A stretch of 64,000 nucleotides of DNA from Octopus vulgaris (taxonomy: Eukaryota). Positions 5,100 to 62,101 of the stretch are shown in pieces (the first letter of the stretch is position 1; each line of letters starts with the position of its first letter). The stretch is taken from positions 65,658,001 through 65,722,000 of the forward strand of contig OX597814.1 of NCBI GenBank assembly GCA_951406725.2, written 5' to 3'. The notes under the pieces were generated by a model. The model did no database searches, was not told the origin of the DNA, and saw nothing but the letters and a program-made list of their open reading frames with translations. A program made the translations under genes and the position numbers.

Positions 5100-6400
5100 T
5101 ACCTATGTGCCAAAAATCATTAAAATCGGTTTGACACTGTGGGAGAAGAGAGTTAGAGTAACCTCAAACACAAACAAACAAACACACACCATTGCACATT
5201 TATGTATATAGATGTAGTAGTAAGTGCTGGAGAGACAATGATGGCGTGTGAGGCGAAGAAGGCTGAATTTAGTGCAGGGGACTGCAAGGAAGAGGGATGG
5301 AGCAAAGTTAAGGTAGAGAAATCGAAAGTTGATACGAGGGAGTTCAAGTGTATGTGGAGGAGTGATAAATTTGGTCCGATGAGCGTGTATGTTTGGTGAA
5401 AGAAAAGGGTGCATCCTATACTGGTTTGCAAGACCAATAGGTGTTATGTGGAGTGGTTATCGCTACCGAATTATCGAGAAACAGAGAACTCGTTGATAAG
5501 TCTGATGTCTTTGAGGTGTTGTGCAAAACTGTCGGATTGTCGTCAGCCGGTTTATCCAATGCTGATAATGTTGCACCCGAAACATTGGGGTGCATATATG
5601 AGGTTTTTAGACTTTCATCGAAATGAGTCCCTTAAGTGGAACGTATAGTGGTTGGGTTTGATGAAAGTGACGATTTTGGAAAGGCAAGTGAAAGTGTGCC
5701 AGCAGTAAAGAATGTAATGCACAGATCTGGGTGGGGCATGGGTGTGAAAAGAGCAGCTGTGGATGACAAATGCACGTAGGTTGCGGGCGAGTTTAAGGAA
5801 GGAATGCGAAGAATGAGGTGTCACATGGTTGTATTCCGGACGCGAGATATGAAAGTTATGACGCGATCGCTGGTTGAGTCATAAGAAACGCAGCTTGCAT
5901 GGATACACTCGTAGAATGAATAAAATCGTCATTTGTTGAGCGTGGTTGCGGATACAGAAGCTGCAGAGTTGCTGGAACTGGAAATAGGAGATGACATGTT
6001 TTATGCAGGTGGTTTTCGCGAAGGAAAAATGTTGGTAGGAGTGGGAGCGAGTGATTTTATAGAAAATATAAATGGAGAATGTAAGGGTGATAAGTTCCTT
6101 TAGGCGAAGGAGAGTGATGCTGGTATCAAGGTTAATGTAGTCTAAGGGATGATGGTTTATATAGAGTTGCCCATGCGAAAAATGAGGGAAAAGGAGTCAG
6201 ACATAAAGAAGATAGGAAGAGATAGCGGGCATAGTTAGTGTTGTGTATGTAGGAGGAAAGTGAAGAAACCGGGGGCGGCGCGAGGTGCGTGTCAAGGTGA
6301 AAGAGTATGAACCTTTTGTGGCAGTTACAGGCATGGCTGATGGAGCTATGGTTGAGTTTATAGTGGAGTTACTGGGTGTCCGGACGAAGAGGTTGGAAGG
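5100..6400 (-). mobile_element. Decayed Penelope-like element (GIY-YIG region recognisable)
   Basis: Minus-strand translation near 5460-5605: NLIYAPQCFGCNIISIG*TG*RQSDSFAQHLKDIR...VSR*F. Ends near a microsatellite block. Confidence 0.65.
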
Positions 6401-22759: not shown

Positions 22760-25306
22760 AAAATAGTAAAAAGTGAAAAAACTACAGAAGGCTTAAAGGT
22801 TAAAAAATATATATATTTGAGTCAATATGTCTGAAGAATATTAAAAAAATTTTTCCTTACAATGACATAGTTTAGAAGAAAGACCGGTTTCGCGTTTAGC
22901 TTTTCAAATTTCTTACGACGTTATGTTTATGTTGAACAGAGTTATCGTTATGTTTATGTTTAAAAGAGTTCTAAATAAGGGGAGGTAATGAGTGATTTCT
23001 TCCGGTGTAAGGGAGATAATCGCTTAAATTTTTTTCCTTTCCCTTGGTGTGAATTTCTCTGTATCAGTATGTTGGCATGGTTAAGTCTGGGCTTGTACTT
23101 TTCAATGAAGAATGTTTCCTTGTTTAGTCTAATTTGTGTTGATGATCCGATAGCACATTGGTAGAATGGAAAGATTAAAAATTGTGGTAGTAGTTGCTTT
23201 GCGCATTTCTCAATGTGCTCACTAAAAGGTATCATTCTGTATTCTGGGAATGCAATCTGTTGTCGATGCAGTGTGCATCTACGTTTGAGTGATAGTCCTG
23301 TGGATCCCACGTAGTCTTGGTGTCAGCCCGAGCATTTTATGACATAAATTATGTTTTCAGAGGCACAAGTAAAGTTAGATTTGATCTTGAATTTCTGTCC
23401 CTCTTTAAAGAGGAATTCTGATCCTTCTAGCAGGTTTGGACATGTTGCACAGTTCAATCTACCACATTTTTTTACTTTTGCATCCGTAATTTCAGAAAAC
23501 AATTTTGCCTTTGTGAGAATCTTTTTGAGTGATTTAGGTTGTTTGTAGCTTTTAATGATTTGGTGTATGTTTAGAATTTCCTTTAATTTTGGGTCCTTAT
23601 GAAGTATTGGTAAATTCTGGGTGATGATGGTGAAGGCTTCTTTGTTTCTGGGGTTGTATGTAGATATATAAGGTAGTATTTTCGGGGAAGGTGTGTTGTT
23701 GTGTTGAACTTTTCTTAAAGTTTCTATGTTGATTTCTGTTGCACGTCTGATCCCATCCTCTATGAGTTGAGCTGGGTAATGTCTGTCAATTAGGGTGTTT
23801 TTGAGTTCTTGCAGTCTAAAGTTCCTGGTATTTTGTTCTGACACTATTGTGCATATCCTTCTTGCAAGGTTGAAGGGGATGTTTGTTTTAGTGTGTCTTG
23901 GGTGGCATGAATTAAAAAGAAGGTATTGTTTGGCGTCTGTGGCTTTGTAAAAAATGTCTGTTTCTATTTTAAGGTTAATTTTTTTAATTAGTATATCCAA
24001 GAACGGGAGCTCCTTTTGGTTGTATTCCATTGTGAACTGTATATTTGGGTTTATGCTGTTCAATAGGTTTTTAAATTTTAGGAGTTTATCTGTGTTTTCA
24101 TTCCAGAGTATAAAACAATCGTCTAAGAATCGTTTCCAATTCTCTTTTATGTATTGAGAAAGGGGGTTTCCAAAGATTGATAAAGATTCCTGGTAAATGA
24201 TTATGTCCATGTAGCCCATTGTTAGGTTCGCAATAACTGGTGCTGCCCTTGTACCCATAGCAATTCCGGATTTTTGACGGTAAAATGTATTGTCAAACAT
24301 GAAATGGTTATTATGTAGGATGAATTCAATTGATTTAGTAATGAATTCTTTACTGATCCTTTTGGTATTTCTTCCGGAAATTGGTCCAGCCAGAACTGTA
24401 TTGCCTCTAGTCCATAATTATGAGGTATACTGGTATATAAGTTAACTACATCAAATGAAACCAGGATTGTTTCTTCCTTGGCTTTTTTTGGAAGGTGGTT
24501 TAACATATCTAAGTCATCTCTGATATGGCTATCGATATGTTTAAGGAAGGGTTTCAGGAGGATGTCCATAAATAGACTTAGTCTGTGTGTTTCACAGGTT
24601 GGGCCAGCTACAATGGGTCGTAGTTTTAGGTCCCCCGGGTTAGGTGTGTGTATGTCTTTGGTGATTTTTTAATGGTTTCATTTATAATTTGGCTTTTATG
24701 AATTTTTGGCAGACCATAGAAGAGGCTAGGTTTGCATTTAAAGTTTGTTAGAAAGTCAATCTCTTTTTCATGGGTTTTAATTAGTGAAGATAGAGTTTTC
24801 ATTATTTTTTGTTGGGTGTAGTTGGTAATTTTTTCATAATGTAGGTCGTCATCAAGCAAGGAAATTACAAGATTTCTATAGTATGATGTATCCATTATTA
24901 CAACTGCATTTCCCTTGTCCGCTTCCTTAATGGTTATATCCTCATCATTTTGAAGTTCTATCAGTTCCTTCCATTGTGTAGTGTTAAAATTTGAGTTAAC
25001 TTTCTGTTTATGTATAGTATGGTAGGGAAAGTTCTCAATGTGGTTACAGAATTCATCAAGATCTTTATCTCTTCCTCTGTGTGGGATGTGTTCACTTTTG
25101 TTCTTGACTAGTGATTCATCTTCAGTATTGAAACTGGTTGATGCTTCTGCTAGTCTTAATTTTCTGCAAAATTCTGTTATATTATCCTTGATTTCATTTA
25201 GGTTGGCTCTGCGTGGAGTTGGTGTAAATTTGAGCCCTTTTGAGAGGATGTCAATTTTTATGTTAGAAAGAGGTTTGGTTGAAAGATTGATTATCTTCGG
25301 TTTTTC
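22760..25306 (-). mobile_element. Penelope-like retroelement (Neptune-like), near-complete but disrupted RT + GIY-YIG ORF
   Basis: Consecutive ORF pieces: INLS..LSKGLKFTPTP, ADKGNAVVIMD, FYGLPKIHK, SFDVVNLYTSIP, GIAMGTRAAP, WKRFLDDCF, LPFLDI, CGRLNCATC, NIIYVIKCSG*..YVGSTG. Two frameshifts and a stop. (TA)n on both sides. Confidence 0.92.
22876..22914 (-). ncRNA. Minimal type-I hammerhead ribozyme in the PLE 3' region (U3-A8 variant)
   Basis: Minus strand: AAGAAA u UUGAAAA GC uaaac GC GAAA CCGG UC / UUUCUU. 6-bp helix I, palindromic helix III (ACCGGU), GUC site. Confidence 0.75.
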
Positions 25307-25330
25307 TATATATATATATATATATATATA

Positions 25331-25900
25331 TGTTCTTTGACTTGCTTCAGTCATTTCAGTGCGGCCATGCTGGAGCACCGCCTTTAGTCGAGCAAATCGA
25401 CCCAGGACTTATTCTTTGTAAGCCTAGTACTTATTCTACCATTGTCTTATGTAGAACAGCTAAGTTGAGGGGACGTAAACATAGCAACATCAGTTGTCAA
25501 GCGTACCCGAAACCACGCGCCTTTGGGATATATATAGGTCATGAGTTCGATTCCCTGCAACGCGTTGTGTCCTTGAGCAAGACACTTTATTTCACCTTGC
25601 TCCAGTCTACTCAGCTGGCAAAACTGAGTTGTACCTGTATTTCAAATGGCCGGCTTTGTCACGCTCTATGTCACGCTGAATCTCCCTGAGAACTACGTTA
25701 GGGGTACACGTGTCTGTGGATTGCTTAGTCACCTGCACGTTAATTTCATGAGCAGGCCGTTCCGTTGATCGTATCAGCTGGGACCCTCGTCGTCATAAAC
25801 GACGGAGTGTTCCTTTATATCCCAAATCACCGCTTGACAATCAGGGTTGGTACGTTTATTTTCCCGTAACACAATAGTTCGGCAAAAGAAAATGTTAGAA
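25331..25900. mobile_element. Family A SINE fragment(s) with a different plus-strand SINE nested at ~25535-25810
   Basis: Family A tail at 25331-25503. B box gagttcgattccc and CORE-like tccttgagcaagacactt at 25542-25590. Confidence 0.7.
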
Positions 25901-33059: not shown

Positions 33060-35500
33060 CATTAACTGAATGTCACTGCAACACATTTTTGCCTTTATCA
33101 GATTTGTTCTAACGTTTTACTTCTGACCGGCTATAATTTGCATTTCGTTCTCTCGTTTCAAGTTCCCTTCCGTCAACCAGAACCAGAGATATTTGCTTCC
33201 AACATTTTTGGTTTGTTGCATGAATAGGCCGTGTACTTCCATTTCTTTCCATTTGCTTGTTACGTTGTTCTTCCACCTCTTTTTGAATTCTCCTACTGTT
33301 TTAGCCACCAAGTATCGCAGTATTAACAATGTTTTCTACGTTTAGTAATCCTCTTCTTCCTTCCTTTCTTAGTAGGTAGAGTCAGGTGATATTGGGTGGA
33401 GCGCATTGTGCATTGTGAGCAGAATTCCAGCTCTATTCAAATTCTGTAGTTCGACTACGGACCATTTCAGAAAAGGAGCAGAGTATCTCAGTACTCGCAT
33501 AGGCCATGTATTTATGATTTTAATGATGCTCTTTCCGATTAATTTTCTTTCGAGCGCCTCTCTAATTCTCCCTAATTCTTCTCTAGTACTCTTTATTGTA
33601 GTAACTTTATTTCTCATTTCTCTTCTCATTATACTATCGCCTCGCAGCATTCCTAGATATTTGTAGCCCTCATTATTCCCCAGCGGTCTAAAGATTTTGT
33701 CTTGTGATAACTTTATGACATCAGAATTTAACTTACAGCCTCTCTTTATGATCAGTACTGCGCACTTACGTACCCCCATTTTAATATCTTTACTCTCACT
33801 GTCTATATCAAAGAATTTAGCTCTGTCTCATTTTTTTGTATAAAGATTGATGTCATCCATATAAAGTAGGTAATTTATTCTCATTTTGAATTATGTAAAC
33901 TCATAGCAGGTCTCAATTTTCTCAGTATACTTGTCAGATATTTTAGTGCAACGTCTAAGAATAATGGAGAGAGCGAGTCTCCTTGGAAAATGCCCCTCAG
34001 TATTTTCACGTTGCCTAATGATTCATTTCCACTTATCAAATCTTCTCATATTGCTTTCTCCAAAAAGTTATTTATTTTCTCATTCACTCCAAGCTTCCTT
34101 ATACACACCAAGAGCCAATTGTGTGGGACTTTGTCGTAGGCCTTCTTGTAATCCAACAGCCAAATTCTTCCTCCTTATTAGTACCTCATTTTATATTCTA
34201 TCTGTAAATAGCAGTTCCGATTGATTTCTTCCAATATTTTTTTCTCTGACAACAGATTCTCCTTTCCCAGAAAATTATATTCTTCATCTGCTATGAGGTC
34301 AGTTAAAAGTTTCCAAGAAAATGGTAAGCAAGTAATGGGTTTATAATTGCTGACATCTCCACTTTATTCTTGGAACTTCTGTGACAGTACTACCCTTCCT
34401 TTAGTCATCCATGTTGGTATTCTATTTTCCAAGGAGTTAGTAAAATAGCAGTCGTATATAACTGGGTATACAAGGGATATTCTTGAACCAGAAGCCCTTG
34501 ACATTATCTGGTCTGGGTGCTTCTCAGTTTAGTCTTTTCTTGATCACCGCTTTGACGTTCTTACCCATAATTCTTATTTTTCCTTGTGTCATTCCAGCTT
34601 CCATTTGTCTTTTAAATTCTCGCCAATACTCTGTTTTTATATTATGTTCCCTTTTTTCTTTGCTCCAGATTTCTACCCAGAATTTCATTACTACTTTAGT
34701 ATCTGGCGTATCAATTCTCTCATGTTCCTCTTCATCGTTCAGTTGTTCATAAAATTTCCTTGTGCTTGAAGAGTATGTTCTACTGGTACTGATTTGTTCT
34801 CAATTGTTATCTGATTTTTAAAAAACTCTTCTATTACTATTCTTTCCTATGGTTGTTGCATTATTTGACCAAGATCTCTCTTGAACTTTTGGCTTTGCCC
34901 TTTGTTTAACTTTCATTTTAACCCGAATATTTTACACAGGGACAGAGGCTGTGTAAAAGAGAAGGTCATTTATATCTCTTACGTTTTCGTTCTAGATTTT
35001 CACAAACAGTTCGTCCATCTTCTCTGCTTCTTTATATAGTTTTCGTCTTTCGATTTTTTTTAGGGCTCTTACTTTCGCTATTTCCAGCCTTATTCAGGTG
35101 GAGTAGGGATCTCTTTTCTTCCTCTGTAACTGTCTTTTCCTCCTTAATGTATAATTTACCTTCATTCGAGCAACTGTTTCTTTTGTGAGATTTTATTGGT
35201 TTCTGTGCTAATCCTTTTACTTGTTCTGCTTTTATTTTCTTCGTGTTTAGAGTAGTCACGTTCACACTTGTTCACTAGATCTCCTCTAGTTGCAACTAGG
35301 ATAACCACTGCTTTCACGATTAAAATTGTTTGGTGCAGAATTGTTCCGTGAGAAGGAATACATCTTTCTCTGTTCAAACTTTATGCATTCTTTTCAGGTA
35401 TCCCATTTTAAGAGACTTGGTTCTGTAATCGCATTCCATTACTGTTCTATTGCCGTTTTGAGTTCATTTTCTCCTAATCTTTTATCAGTGGATCATTTAC
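33060..35500 (-). mobile_element. Decayed R4/Dong-like LINE RT
   Basis: NYKPITCL, LLYMDDINLY, KCAVLIIKRG, GYKYLGML, INTWPMRVLRYSA, WL..GNLKRE.E..IIAGQ. Confidence 0.75.
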
Positions 35501-45052: not shown

Positions 45053-48000
45053 TGTATGTATGTGTGTTCATATCCACGCAAGTGCCAATCTGGAAAGTGA
45101 ACCTAAGATTACAGAAATTTATTTCAACATTAAATAGAAGAAATAACCTAAACTCATCATATATTGCAATCTATGTATGCCCAAAGATAATAATGCTAAC
45201 CTATTTATCTTAATTAAAAAAGTTTCATCTATGGATAAACTTATGTATATTCTCTACCGAAACATCCTCTGTGCCAGCGTCATCTTGCTGAAATTACATT
45301 ACTATCAAAGAGTAAATGGAAGATTTATTACAATAGCAATAGTAATAATTGTCCTTACCATCTTAATTAAATGAGTCTAATTTTTATGGAATATAAAACG
45401 CCCACAATTTGATTTGAGTACACAATTTCTCCACAAAGAAGCAAACTGGCTTATAAATATAAACTTATCCATATCATAGAATTCTCAAATTCAACAAAAC
45501 TTCAACAAAAATTAACGATAATACTATAACAACATCACTGCTAACAGAAACTTAGAATTAGACTGTTATACTGCTGATACTAAAGTAGGATAGCGCGGGC
45601 GAGTATCTGATGGTCAATGGCAATTGATCCGAAGCTCAAAATATTTCTAACACTGAAACTATTTTTGACAACCTAGCAGTGATATGGGATGATGATATTC
45701 TTGAACAAGTATAAAATACAGTTGTAAACGACAACCGTTTAGGACAAATATACAGGAAGAATTTTCCAAACCAGAACATAATATAATAAATAAACAGCAG
45801 GAAATTATCAAAAAGTTGCCTAGGCAAACGACATGAAAGAAACGTATGAAGCCTTTAATTTCTTGATGTTTTAACAACATCACTAATAAATCGCAAGGAG
45901 AGGAAATAGTACAAATATCTTGAAACCAGTGTGTTCCTCATGCCGTTAGGCATGCTCATAGATCACCTTTAGTATGGTTAGACGGCACTTCATCCGACTT
46001 TCGAAATATAGTTCAATGTATACAAAACGCTATTTGATATTCTTACAAAGTCATTATACCGCCAAAGGATGTATGGAGATGTTTAGAGTAGCTACTTATT
46101 AAACAAAATGATAACAAAGAAACCGTAAAGAACGTTAGAGCCGTGATTCTGATAGTTTGTTACGCAGGTAGATTATTATGACAGTTTTACAAATGTACGA
46201 AACCTCACGTTCACCTGTAAATGTTGTTCAGTAATTTCACAAGAGATAAACTCTCCGATAAATCTAACAATACATTTTCAAAAATTCTCCTGCTATATTT
46301 GTTTTCTCGCTAATCCGGTTATTATATCTCCTTATAAAATATGGTGTTACTGAAATCATAAGCCTAAAAACTTATCTCGGGTTTTCTTTGAGCACTATCT
46401 GGAGCTCTACACATCACATTTTAAACATGTCAAAAAGAAACTCTAGCTCATTACCAAAGACACTAGAATAAAATTTGGTGAGTTCAGTCGTCCATTTATA
46501 GTGGTAAGATAAGAATAATTTATGCCTTATTAAGAAAATCCACAGATGAATACAGTCAGGTGAAAACTATACCCGATTTGAACAAGCTAAGTAACGTTTG
46601 GTACGATGCACTCATTGAAAATTTGAAAGCAATAAATATTTTAATAATTAAATAGCAAAGCAAGAATTTTTAATACAAATTGTTGCATTGTAAAAACATA
46701 TCGCTTTAGACCTCTGAAATACACGCGATTCTTTAAAGTGGACATTAATAGACTTAAGGAAATTTGAGTTTTATTTGAAATTTCAACATTTTTATAGATG
46801 TAAAAAACCTATAATTCTTATGCAAAGAAGAAGTCCTCACTACATCAGGAATGAACTATAACAACGAATCGGAATCTCTGGTAGAGCAAACGGCTCAGAA
46901 GTTATTTTATTGAATAGAATAGTTCACTAAGAGAAATGCACATGGGTACTTAAAGCGTTAAACATAGACCATGGAAATAAGTGACGCAGGAATTTGTTAT
47001 GGGGTCCCGATATTTTATAATATCTCACCTTGAAGGTTACCTTTAAGCAATCCAGGAGCAAGAAATTCCCACCAAGAACCATCTGCAAAAGAGACAAAAT
47101 CATCAGCTAACAACAAGTTTAGACTATGCAACAGCAAAACAGACTACCTTAGTCACAGCTGCCTAAGAATAATTTCGAGTTATTACCTTCCCGTGACTGG
47201 AATGAGGCAAGGAAGATTTAACAAATAATAATGTATAAATATAAGCACATTGAAACTGATAGATCAAAAAAAATATTGGTTGAATCTGAATTTTAAACAT
47301 CGTAACATATACTATGAATGTTCGTTATCACCTTAACGTCCACAAGGTAAGAGTACTGATCTAATAGTTTAATCCCATAGGATAAAAGTACTGAAAAGCA
47401 GATATACTGAAAGAGACTACTGATGAAGTGTTTACGAATCCAACTCAAAATACACTTTCACCACTCATTGGTATTACTGCAACAAAGATGCAACAACCAG
47501 GTAGTTCTAAATGCGCCTGAATTCGTATTTCTAGAGAAAGCCCATGTTTTACAATTTAGTTATAGTAAATGAACATATATCAGAAAGAAAAGTAATCTGA
47601 AAGGTCTTTTAGTATTTACAGAGTAGTGGCCGCGCATGGAAAGATGAATAGGGCAAGACAATCTTTTTAAGTATATTTTCTTTACAATCATATCACTGAG
47701 TGGGCGGACAGTGAAAACAACACCATAACAGAAACCATATCTATATATAGATATATAGATAATCAACATGCAGATATATCAACATTGCAAATGAAATATC
47801 AACATTACATACAAATAAAAAGAAACCATACATGGCTACTTGAAACGCAGTGTTTAGAATTTTGTCAATAACGACAGGAGAATTATAAAATCACTTCGAC
47901 TTGTAAAAGAAATATCATTTCCCATTTAGAAGAATAGATACTTGCGAATTCATTTTAAACAGTTGAGTAAAAATTACTGAAGCCTTTAATATCCCCAATA

Positions 48001-53142: not shown

Positions 53143-53195
53143 ATATTTTTGATAAGGTTCGTTTTTTTAAAGAAGAACCGAAACATGTAAAATTT
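53143..53195 (+). ncRNA. Type-I hammerhead ribozyme (U3-A8 variant)
   Basis: AUUU UUGAUAA GGUUC...GAACC GAAA CAUG UA / AAAU. 5-bp helix II, palindromic helix III ACAUGU. Confidence 0.72.
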
Positions 53196-53453
53196 CTAAG
53201 AAAATTAAAATTTATCTTAAATAGTGGCGTTTTCAAACTTCTTTTTTATAAATATATATATATATATATATACATACATATGTATATATATTTATATGTA
53301 CATATATATAAATATATATATATATATCTATATATACGTATAAGTATATAGACACATGTTTGTATATGTATATATATATATATGTATATATATATATTTA
53401 AAAAAAGAAGTTTGAAAAACGCCACTATATAAGATAAATTTTAATTTTGCTAG

Positions 53454-53505
53454 AAATTTTACATGTTTCGGTTCTTCTTGAAAAAACGAACCGTATCAAA
53501 AATAT
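53454..53505 (-). ncRNA. Inverted copy of the 53143 hammerhead (A9C substitution)
   Basis: Minus strand: AUUU UUGAUAC GGUUC...GAACC GAAACAUGUA AAAU. Confidence 0.6.
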
Positions 53506-54852: not shown

Positions 54853-54893
<41 letters not shown>

Positions 54894-54905
54894 ATTATAT
54901 AGAAG

Positions 54906-54958
54906 GAGCTTCTACAGGACTAGAACTGTTTCATTCAAGAGAAATCTTCAGGAAGCTC
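54906..54958 (-). ncRNA. Type-I hammerhead ribozyme, canonical core (copy 1)
   Basis: Minus strand: GAGCUUC CUGAAGA uUUC ucuu GAAu GAAA CAG uucuaguc CUG UA / GAAGCUC. 7-bp helix I, 4-bp helix III, GUA site. Confidence 0.85.
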
Positions 54959-55322
54959 TTTTTAGTCGGACCGACGGTTTATTTTCGAAATGGTCTTTGT
55001 GGTCTTTCAGGGTGAAGTGTGGGGACTTCACCCTCAGGGGTTCAGTTCGGTGGGAGCTTTTCATTTTCGAAAGTTTCTCATTCAGTTCCGTTTGGAAAGG
55101 TAGGTTGACTCTCCTGAATTTGATGTTTTTTATCATGAGGAAGAGGTCTTCTTCAAACGGTTCAAGTAGGCTGTTGGTAGGGGGGGCCCTATTTGATTTG
55201 AAGCCGTACTTATCATTATTGGTAGATGCTACATCAGGATGGTCGAAGAAGAAAGGGTACTGTTTCCTTGGTGGGATAGTAATGTTCTTCAGGGAAGTAT
55301 CGAGGTCGATTCTTGTCAGCAT
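54948..55322 (-). pseudogene. 124-codon ORF derived from internally deleted PLE ORF N-terminus
   Basis: SLKNITIP, YGFKS..PP, FEEDL..MIKNIKFR..FQ..L and TLKDHKDHFENKP.VRL are motifs I recognise from PLE N-terminal/pre-RT regions. Confidence 0.65.
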
Positions 55323-55452
55323 TTTTCTTGGTGATGGTTATAAGGGCACTGGGGTGTGCTAGGATATGTAGGTCCCGGGTTGATTCGGGGTTAACCACAG
55401 TAAATAAGGTACTCAATACATAGCAGAGTAAAATTAATTTATTATATAGAAG

Positions 55453-55505
55453 GAGCTTCTACAGGACTAGAACTGTTTCATTCAAGAGAAATCTTCAGGA
55501 AGCTC
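55453..55505 (-). ncRNA. Type-I hammerhead ribozyme (copy 2, identical)
   Basis: Same sequence as 54906-54958, offset by 547 nt. Confidence 0.85.
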
Positions 55506-55509
55506 TTCT

Positions 55510-55562
55510 GAGCTTCCTGAAGATTTCTCTTGAATGAAACAGTTCTAGTCCTGTAGAAGCTC
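55510..55562 (+). ncRNA. Type-I hammerhead ribozyme (copy 3, opposite strand)
   Basis: gagcttc CTGAAGA tttctcttgaat GAAA cag ttctagtc ctg TA gaagctc, read directly on the plus strand. Confidence 0.85.
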
Positions 55563-55642
55563 CTTCTATATAATAAATTAATTTTACTCTGCTATGTATT
55601 GAGTACCTTATTTACTGTGGTTAACTCCGAATCAACCCGGGA

Positions 55643-55698
<56 letters not shown>

Positions 55699-61775: not shown

Positions 61776-62101
61776 TTATCATATTGCAGTAATACATAGT
61801 TTATTGCAACTATTATGCACTGTTTACTTTGGAAATCTTATCTTATGATTTCAAATTTTAAATGGGCACTGAACAGAAATATCCAAGACGGTGATAATGG
61901 TCTAACATCAATTATATAAATTGGATACATAACTTCTTCAGTTGGGAGAGTGACAGAGTGGAGCAAATCCATTCCATCTTCTCTTCCTCTTGAATCTTGC
62001 AGTTGCCAAGTTGAATTTATCTACATTCTTGTAGAGATGTCACAGAGTTAATATTAAACAAAAGCAGAAAAGAAGCTTTCACCCTGGACCATGTACTCTT
62101 C

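Follow-up and report, generated by a model that had tools for sequence, protein, structure and literature searches.

Penelope-like elements (PLEs) are known to insert as tandem, inverted and tailed copies (PMC8557442; PMC3846280; PMC4209133). Pairs of hammerhead ribozymes on opposite strands have been noted and circular templates proposed (PMC4209133). PMC8557442, PMC4209133 and PMC11167929 state as open questions how these tandem, inverted and tailed insertions arise and whether the hammerhead cuts in vivo. Within the PLEs, the Hydra clade has a motif set of RW(K/R), DKT in place of DKG, a CxCx5C linker, CxxC and CxH with no CCHH; a length below 3 kb is a tendency of the clade and not diagnostic (PMC8557442).

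Non-LTR retrozymes are non-coding tandem repeats of about 300 bp that are present in many copies, and some are proven to form circles (PMC7229834; bioRxiv 10.64898/2026.07.22.740005). The same sources have already proposed that retrozymes originate from PLEs. So far that origin rests on co-occurrence and on pseudo-LTR trees.

We analyzed a 64,000-nt stretch of the Octopus vulgaris genome (the window; contig OX597814.1, positions 65,658,001 to 65,722,000), in which an earlier note had described a 547-nt hammerhead-to-hammerhead unit as a retrozyme-like mini-element. That description was incomplete, as it overlooked a third hammerhead, a reverse transcriptase (RT) remnant and the parent family. 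The unit belongs to an insertion with PLE parentage that has two internal deletions with unique junctions, a long and a short arm joined head to head, and extra bases ending in G.

Results

The exact 70-bp direct repeats described in the earlier note are present at 54891-54960 and 55438-55507 with a spacing of 547 nt. Both contain a type-I hammerhead on the minus strand (CUGAAGA, GAAA and GUA, with a helix I of 7 bp and a helix III of 4 bp), and we agree with the first reading of these as the type-I hammerheads of a Penelope-like pseudo-LTR. Cuts are predicted at 55460/55459 in hammerhead B and 54913/54912 in hammerhead A, giving the claimed 547-nt monomer, 55459->54913. All three hammerhead copies of the locus have the type-I core of CUGANGA, GAAA and NUH, helices I-III and an open helix I, and in each helix II consists of 3 bp plus a U-U pair. 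The U-U at the base of helix II had been called atypical. It is present but not atypical, as the hammerhead table in the PMC8557442 supplement has 14 rows, from Hydra and Penelope-n_HM families, with the same CUGANGAU...UGAA pattern, and the pair is thus common for the Hydra clade. The 30-nt hammerhead core matches the genome exactly at 5,235 places and its reversed control at 0, far above chance. Rfam gave 0 hammerhead matches in the window at the gathering score, and none of its 56 matches at E<=10 was to a hammerhead family. Those to miRNA families correspond to the inverted-repeat hairpin and all lie below the gathering score. A second CUGAAGA...GAAAC motif at about R213-245 (parent numbering, in which R1 is the A of AGCTTCC) has neither helix I nor helix II and was therefore taken as chance.

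The whole insertion covers 54891-55646 (756 bp). On its left is the target (TA)n microsatellite (54856..54890, in a TA array at 54856-54901), followed by the short-end pseudo-LTR piece, parent R1-R67 on the minus strand, with hammerhead A (54891..54957). Six bases not found in the parent copies, AAAAAG (54958..54963, minus strand), join this piece to the ORF remnant. The G immediately precedes R1, and the joint may be the scar of a template jump. The spacer between the direct repeats is a Penelope-type RT coding remnant. It includes, on the minus strand, RT ORF piece 3 (54964..55051, parent about R682-R769, with a TLKDHK...RL motif) and piece 2 (55052..55255, parent about R304-R508, with YGFKS...FEEDL motifs), and 174 nt of the parent are absent between 55052 and 55051. 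The parent 5' end, R1-R249, follows on the same strand (55256..55504) with hammerhead B, the 5' UTR and an ATG at 55322, and 54 nt of the parent are absent between 55256 and 55255. Six more non-parental bases (55505..55510) join the arms head to head, with a G just before R1 on both strands. The inverted long-end pseudo-LTR arm, R1-R136 on the plus strand (55511..55646), carries hammerhead C with a predicted cut at 55555/55556. Over about 136-137 bp (from 55510/55511 to 55646) it pairs with 55369-55504/55505 with one mismatch. The right (TA)n flank is at 55645..55684. The earlier statement that the element sits within (TA)n is correct for the left end; on the right, (TA)n starts only at 55645, beyond the inverted arm.

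The unit pieces R1-249, R304-508 and R682-769 are 96-99% identical to the parent, and the unit lacks the parent's TATA region. A G precedes R1 at all three hammerhead 5' edges, within the extra bases, and the three bases AAG before R1 are common to both direct repeats. Each of the two passes of the minus-strand arm ends at R1, as a linear template would give. The two deletions preserve the reading frame (1 in 9 by chance), leaving a 124-codon open frame (54948..55322, minus strand; codons 55322->54951), the stop of which is the UGA in hammerhead A's CUGAAGA; this RT remnant is not expected to be functional. By inspection the deletions have no GT-AG ends on either strand, ruling out spliced introns, and the parent RNA fold has no clear loop-out of the 54- or 174-nt deletion. 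Identity of the repeats had been taken as a sign of recent activity. The insertion is indeed young, as 7 mismatches in 541 nt separate it from the nearest parent copies with full coverage, but 70-bp repeat identity is expected from a single copying event and dates nothing. Elsewhere in the window is a 162-nt inverted repeat (53163-53486), 82% complementary and without a spacer, that overlaps an AT microsatellite.

The parent is a Hydra-type Penelope-like element. Its ORF has about 713 codons, as inferred from overlapping natural copies, and was wholly intact in none of the 12 loci fetched. Among 8,000 candidates scored, 1,376 were homologues. We used an alignment-based structural model (pLDDT 91) and set aside a single-sequence model (pLDDT 35). 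The five best Foldseek matches of the model were all telomerase RTs (TERT), with E values of 2.5e-9 to 4.6e-8. YRDD and YIG motifs are present and GIY-YIG is among the Atlas neighbours; the one ORF has both a telomerase-related RT and, at its C terminus, an endonuclease of the GIY-YIG type. Nothing informative came from Pfam, queried with the remnant and two parent ORFs, or from PDB searches by sequence. A common frame break after the WYNPP motif and before the endonuclease is found in five copies (L022, L025, L026, L028, L029), and two copies (L030, L031) read through. On the minus strand of the window at 22960-25408 is a second, decayed Penelope-like element of another type, in several frames, with a DKG motif, a weak RVT_1 match (E 0.003) and a YVG endonuclease-like piece. 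A 152-codon frame at 33369-33827, also on the minus strand, has no Pfam match and resembles an RT fragment of a non-LTR retroelement.

Like the Hydra clade (Craig et al. 2021, PMC8557442), the parent has the motifs RIRWR (R for K), DKT, CNCHDKTTC, CDLC..E and LLN..CMH, and a C-terminal YIG endonuclease with a single C before YIG and without the CCHH cysteines. It shares with the clade insertion in (TA)n and a canonical hammerhead, including the U-U pattern of the supplement rows, and also the PLE layout of partial-tandem pseudo-LTRs, an inverted 5'-truncated copy and a tail at one end. Unlike the clade, the window copy is a 756-bp non-autonomous fragment, and one natural tandem unit of the parent is 5,193 bp, with the ORF ending at 2,323. 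A long microsatellite-rich 3' region takes this unit beyond 3 kb. Tail length is about 72 nt in the octopus family versus 30-40 in the clade (PMC8557442). Compared by eye with the PMC8557442 supplement rows, the hammerhead and protein clearly differ from those of Hydra-1_Obim of Octopus bimaculoides, indicating another family. In three copies (L028, L030, L031), about 2.9 kb of microsatellite-rich DNA, unusually long for the clade, lies between the parent ORF stop and the next hammerhead. This 3' region is possibly captured host DNA.

To describe the unit as a retrozyme-like mini-element, as the earlier note did, is unsupported, as its junctions are single-copy, it consists of RT coding sequence and it has no TATA region. 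Each of the two deletion junctions has 1 exact match in 2.8 Gb, at the window locus, so the unit has not spread in the assembly and forms no retrozyme family. A genome copy search with the unit found one 100% full-length match among the 40 of 122 candidates scored. In 3 of 4 runs, public contigs contain the undeleted parent at junction 1 (54 extra bases). None of the contigs listed from the 4 runs bridges the unit's junctions; contigs show presence and not absence, and as the runs were seen as contigs only, uncovered junctions are no evidence of silence. Similar to non-LTR retrozymes (Cervera and de la Pena 2020, PMC7229834; Li et al. 2026, bioRxiv 10.64898/2026.07.22.740005), the locus has a type-I hammerhead in each direct repeat, a GC content below 45% (42%) and a PLE pseudo-LTR origin. 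In contrast to them it has one unit plus 70 nt and not two full units, is single-copy and not multi-copy, is mostly RT coding and not non-coding, and has an inverted arm.

The family as a whole is abundant. The parent's upstream context, searched as a second exact pattern, is kept by 2,101 of the 5,235 core matches, and only 103 continue from the pseudo-LTR towards the ORF. As a family sample we used contig C1, where the first 100 core matches represent 76 loci (L035-L114). Its 134 arms end at about R60-70 (64 arms), at about R139-143 (67) or elsewhere (3), so that 131 of 134 end at a short or a long point. The end of the short-end piece in the window matches the first group, and the end region of the inverted arm is as in the second. 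In (TA)n, each of the 52 single inverted pairs combines a long end with a short one (P=2e-16), a count that leaves out the 24 of 76 loci that are not single pairs within the DNA fetched. Foldbacks of 181-373 bp account for 41 of the 76 loci. The C1 foldbacks, of about 200 bp, have only two head-to-head pseudo-LTR ends, and many are fused at the palindrome AGCT. Extrapolating from C1, there are probably well over a thousand foldback insertions genome-wide.

The hammerhead 5' edge, R1-R3, is where 52 of 132 arms start, and R1 lies 29 nt below TATAAAT in the parent. At 22 of 34 independent junctions the base before R1 is a G (P=1e-6 versus 0.25), in a non-random sample from which we dropped 22 rows with a G templated by the other arm through helix I. 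The window locus fits the family rules with its short end on the left, its long end on the right and a G before R1 three times. Among 23 mapped loci, chosen because they run into the ORF, 8 including the window locus have a private unit of 154-925 bp that joins back to R1-R3. One locus (L148, G000:C7:106788700-106789220) has successive 154- and 157-bp units that share a parent 3' end but differ in their joint bases, the pattern expected from repeated template jumping. Joints of the AAG type occur also at unrelated loci.

We consider it likely that the locus is a single-copy, internally deleted Hydra-type insertion in (TA)n, probably made in one event by two reverse transcriptions and an end-to-end jump, and predict little or no 547-nt circle from it. 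Start site, cap, template jump and two-strand priming are here read from scars in the DNA. The parent RNA would start at R1. RTs can copy the cap, a base being added opposite it, and the extra G before R1 would be such a copied cap. The element's endonuclease would open both strands of (TA)n, and each DNA end would prime reverse transcription at an internal RNA site, at about R67 or about R136-141. Both cDNAs would run to R1, where joining them would yield the common 200-bp foldback. In the window, the short-end cDNA would instead add a few untemplated bases and jump to the 3' end of a shortened RNA near R769. It would then copy this RNA back to R1, losing 174 and 54 nt unless the template RNA was already without them, before being joined to the long-end cDNA. 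As the end-to-end jump itself makes a hammerhead-to-hammerhead unit, the unit would be a by-product, with no ribozyme cut or circle required.

Two internal start sites and extension on both strands would match the in vitro result for Poseidon PAc of Anolis carolinensis (Frangieh et al. 2024, PMC11167929). In PAc, as in our proposal, two internal start sites set the tail, targets are AT-rich, both strands are cut and extended, and the hammerhead is not needed for insertion. PAc differs in starting 111-118 nt inside the ORF, whereas both end points of the octopus family are upstream of the ATG (R183), and foldbacks stopping at the hammerhead 5' edge are not described for it in the part of PMC11167929 available to us. 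The proposed jump resembles the end-to-end jumps of the R2 RT, which need untemplated bases (Pimentel et al. 2022, PMC8857657). Those were shown in vitro for a non-LTR RT and not for a PLE RT, while the octopus jump is read from scars.

A normal long insertion could instead have collapsed later through deletions at the DNA level, or the locus could be an assembly artefact; to these we give hardly any probability. Inverted repeats of such length are unstable and difficult to assemble, copies with internal deletions occur elsewhere (L004, L152), and no public contig confirms the junctions. A DNA deletion is unlikely to end exactly at R1 with AAAAAG, let alone at 8 of 23 loci, and the locus has ends that obey the family rule and arms that differ at one base. 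DNA-level deletion could still account for the 54- and 174-nt gaps.

We then examined the family for footprints of cleavage, using patterns with a non-parental base just before the cut site R46 and, as a control, R42. Raw matches were equal (96 at R46, 89 at R42) and only classification separated them. The 75 matches read at R46 comprised 25 truncations, 22 helix-I joins (ambiguous, with 6-nt complementarity), 3 insertions of 1-3 bases and 25 point mutants. Truncations made up 25/75 at R46 and 7/50 at this single control position (P=0.02, or 3e-4 excluding the 22 joins), though by eye one of the 25 looks like a helix-I join and several are two arms of the same insertion. These footprints are suggestive of the octopus family hammerhead cutting in vivo, with cut-site starts making up <1% of arms. 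For PAc, no reads were found at the cleavage site (PMC11167929), while starts of octopus copies are more frequent there than at the one control position. The 132 arms often have deletions at R46 and R49 (9 and 16 differences), and as these may be subfamily variants we did not count them as a cleavage-site mutation peak. At one locus (L149, G000:C15:44664000-44664320) a 125-nt tandem of R46-R170 has its junction at R46 +/-1 and no intact hammerhead in the unit. In three other insertions (L167/L168, L192/L193, L229) the cleavage site is the exact start of both arms, which are separated by 6-29 unrelated bases.

Three arrays were also found. They have 333-bp units with 24 hammerheads on C5 (L021, G000:C5:37481400-37489300), 277-bp units on C2 (L145, G000:C2:64628300-64632200) and 271-bp units on C8 (L146, L147, G000:C8:91475100-91483400). 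Each consists of a minus and a plus block with a long end and a short end, and its arms meet internally. The same junction is on both arms in 12/12 (C2), 21/21 (C5) and 22/23 (C8) units read, and the arrays keep the TATA region, with 38, 45 and 88 nt upstream of R1. Copying of a circular or multimeric template from both DNA ends would explain the arrays best. Periodic variants in C5 and C8 show that later duplication or a multimeric template also contributed. No source dimer for the arrays was found among the loci mapped. With at least two consecutive full units, the C2, C5 and C8 arrays are better retrozyme candidates than the window locus.

Rolling-circle reverse transcription of a circular 547-nt RNA made elsewhere could likewise have produced the window insertion. 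Such an origin would fit a copy that exceeds unit length (547+70) and in which both repeats have the same three bases before R1, and circles have been proposed as PLE templates (PMC4209133). We regard it as very unlikely. The long arm lacks the junction and both arms stop at R1, unlike the three arrays with one junction on both arms and arms that meet internally. The assembly has no source locus with the unit's junctions, and the L148 joints vary, as from linear jumping.

The insertion lies near exons of an Lhx9-like LIM-homeobox gene on the minus strand (window 61977-1950). An upstream coding exon at 61933..61977 belongs to Lhx9-like isoforms annotated in another Octopus species. Its in-frame donor is not GT in this genome, with a GT one base earlier, and its use here is uncertain because of the non-standard donor. 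The exon at 47029..47082 has a canonical acceptor (TTTTGCAG) at 47082 and a canonical donor. A LIM1 exon lies at 37058-about 36818 and a LIM2 exon at about 2130-1950 (Pfam LIM E 2e-17), both on the minus strand. Lhx9-like proteins annotated in Octopus species match a neighbouring exon at 100% identity. For one Lhx9-like isoform (MWSKW...), the exon furthest upstream was not found within the window. The insertion likely sits in the Lhx9-like intron between exons 61933-61977 and 47029-47082, on the same strand, so sense intron RNA is likely. At present the locus is likely transcribed as Lhx9-like intron RNA only. D. virilis Penelope has an internal, TATA-less promoter (PMC2377424); if the octopus family has one too, the 5' end of hammerhead B could start a transcript without the inverted arm.

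The earlier note expected a minus-strand transcript to release a 547-nt circle. The transcript is probable through the host intron, but the circle is not, because the upstream hammerhead is predicted to be locked. The inverted arm, which is transcribed first, and hammerhead B form a predicted 137-bp hairpin of -245.6 kcal/mol. As a result the hammerhead B helices have a predicted probability of 0.00 in read-through RNA, the 5' cut would be blocked and a 547-nt circle is unlikely. In context, predicted probabilities are 0.02-0.08 for helix I of hammerhead A and 0.01-0.07 for helix II of hammerheads A and B. The active hammerhead fold is a minor state in ViennaRNA, which ignores Mg2+, tertiary contacts, proteins and A-to-I editing; these could weaken the hairpin. 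Helix I reaches a predicted probability of 0.83 in a nascent 76-nt RNA from 55505. The circular 547-mer folds better than shuffles (z -3.9, versus -1.8, -2.5 and -0.6 for three parent stretches).

That folding score would suit a unit that is a working young retrozyme, one transcribed from the hammerhead B edge or the intron and cut at both hammerheads, its 547-nt monomer being ligated into a circle that could serve the parent RT as a template for arrays. The two hammerheads are intact and on the same strand, matching that of the Lhx9-like gene, and the family has ends at the cleavage site and three short-unit arrays. Hammerhead tandem repeats yield circles in coral, mussel and axolotl (PMC7229834). 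We nevertheless find a working retrozyme unlikely. The window unit is a single copy without the TATA region that all three arrays keep, hammerhead B is predicted to be locked when read through, and in context neither hammerhead forms well. In vitro, 8 of 9 predicted Xenopus dimers did not cleave (bioRxiv 10.64898/2026.07.22.740005).

Discussion

The 547-nt unit is probably a dead-end insertion, and the family is more interesting than the unit. A broader reading, which we hold to be doubtful, is that retrozymes are being born in this family. Jumps and deletions would make private units, the ribozyme would cut in vivo, and units keeping the TATA region would become circles copied repeatedly by two RTs from both ends of the break, yielding the inverted 271-333-bp arrays. 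The 547-nt unit would then be a first-step proto-retrozyme, excisable from Lhx9-like intron RNA.

Among the titles and abstract openings searched, no paper besides PMC8557442 concerned octopus hammerheads, and neither a strict long/short rule nor arrays with the same junction on both arms appeared. The host could be affected by the 137-bp hairpin and by a possible ribozyme cut, as both would fall within a developmental regulator's intron, and the foldbacks of about 200 bp would give perfect RNA hairpins wherever they lie within introns. For the family, thousands of young copies predict two fixed start sites, one per DNA strand, and a stop at R1 with a G. They further predict that a minority of templates start at the cleavage site and that arrays have the same junction on both arms. 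If the arrays did arise by rolling-circle copying, they would document at base level the emergence of retrozymes from a named parent.
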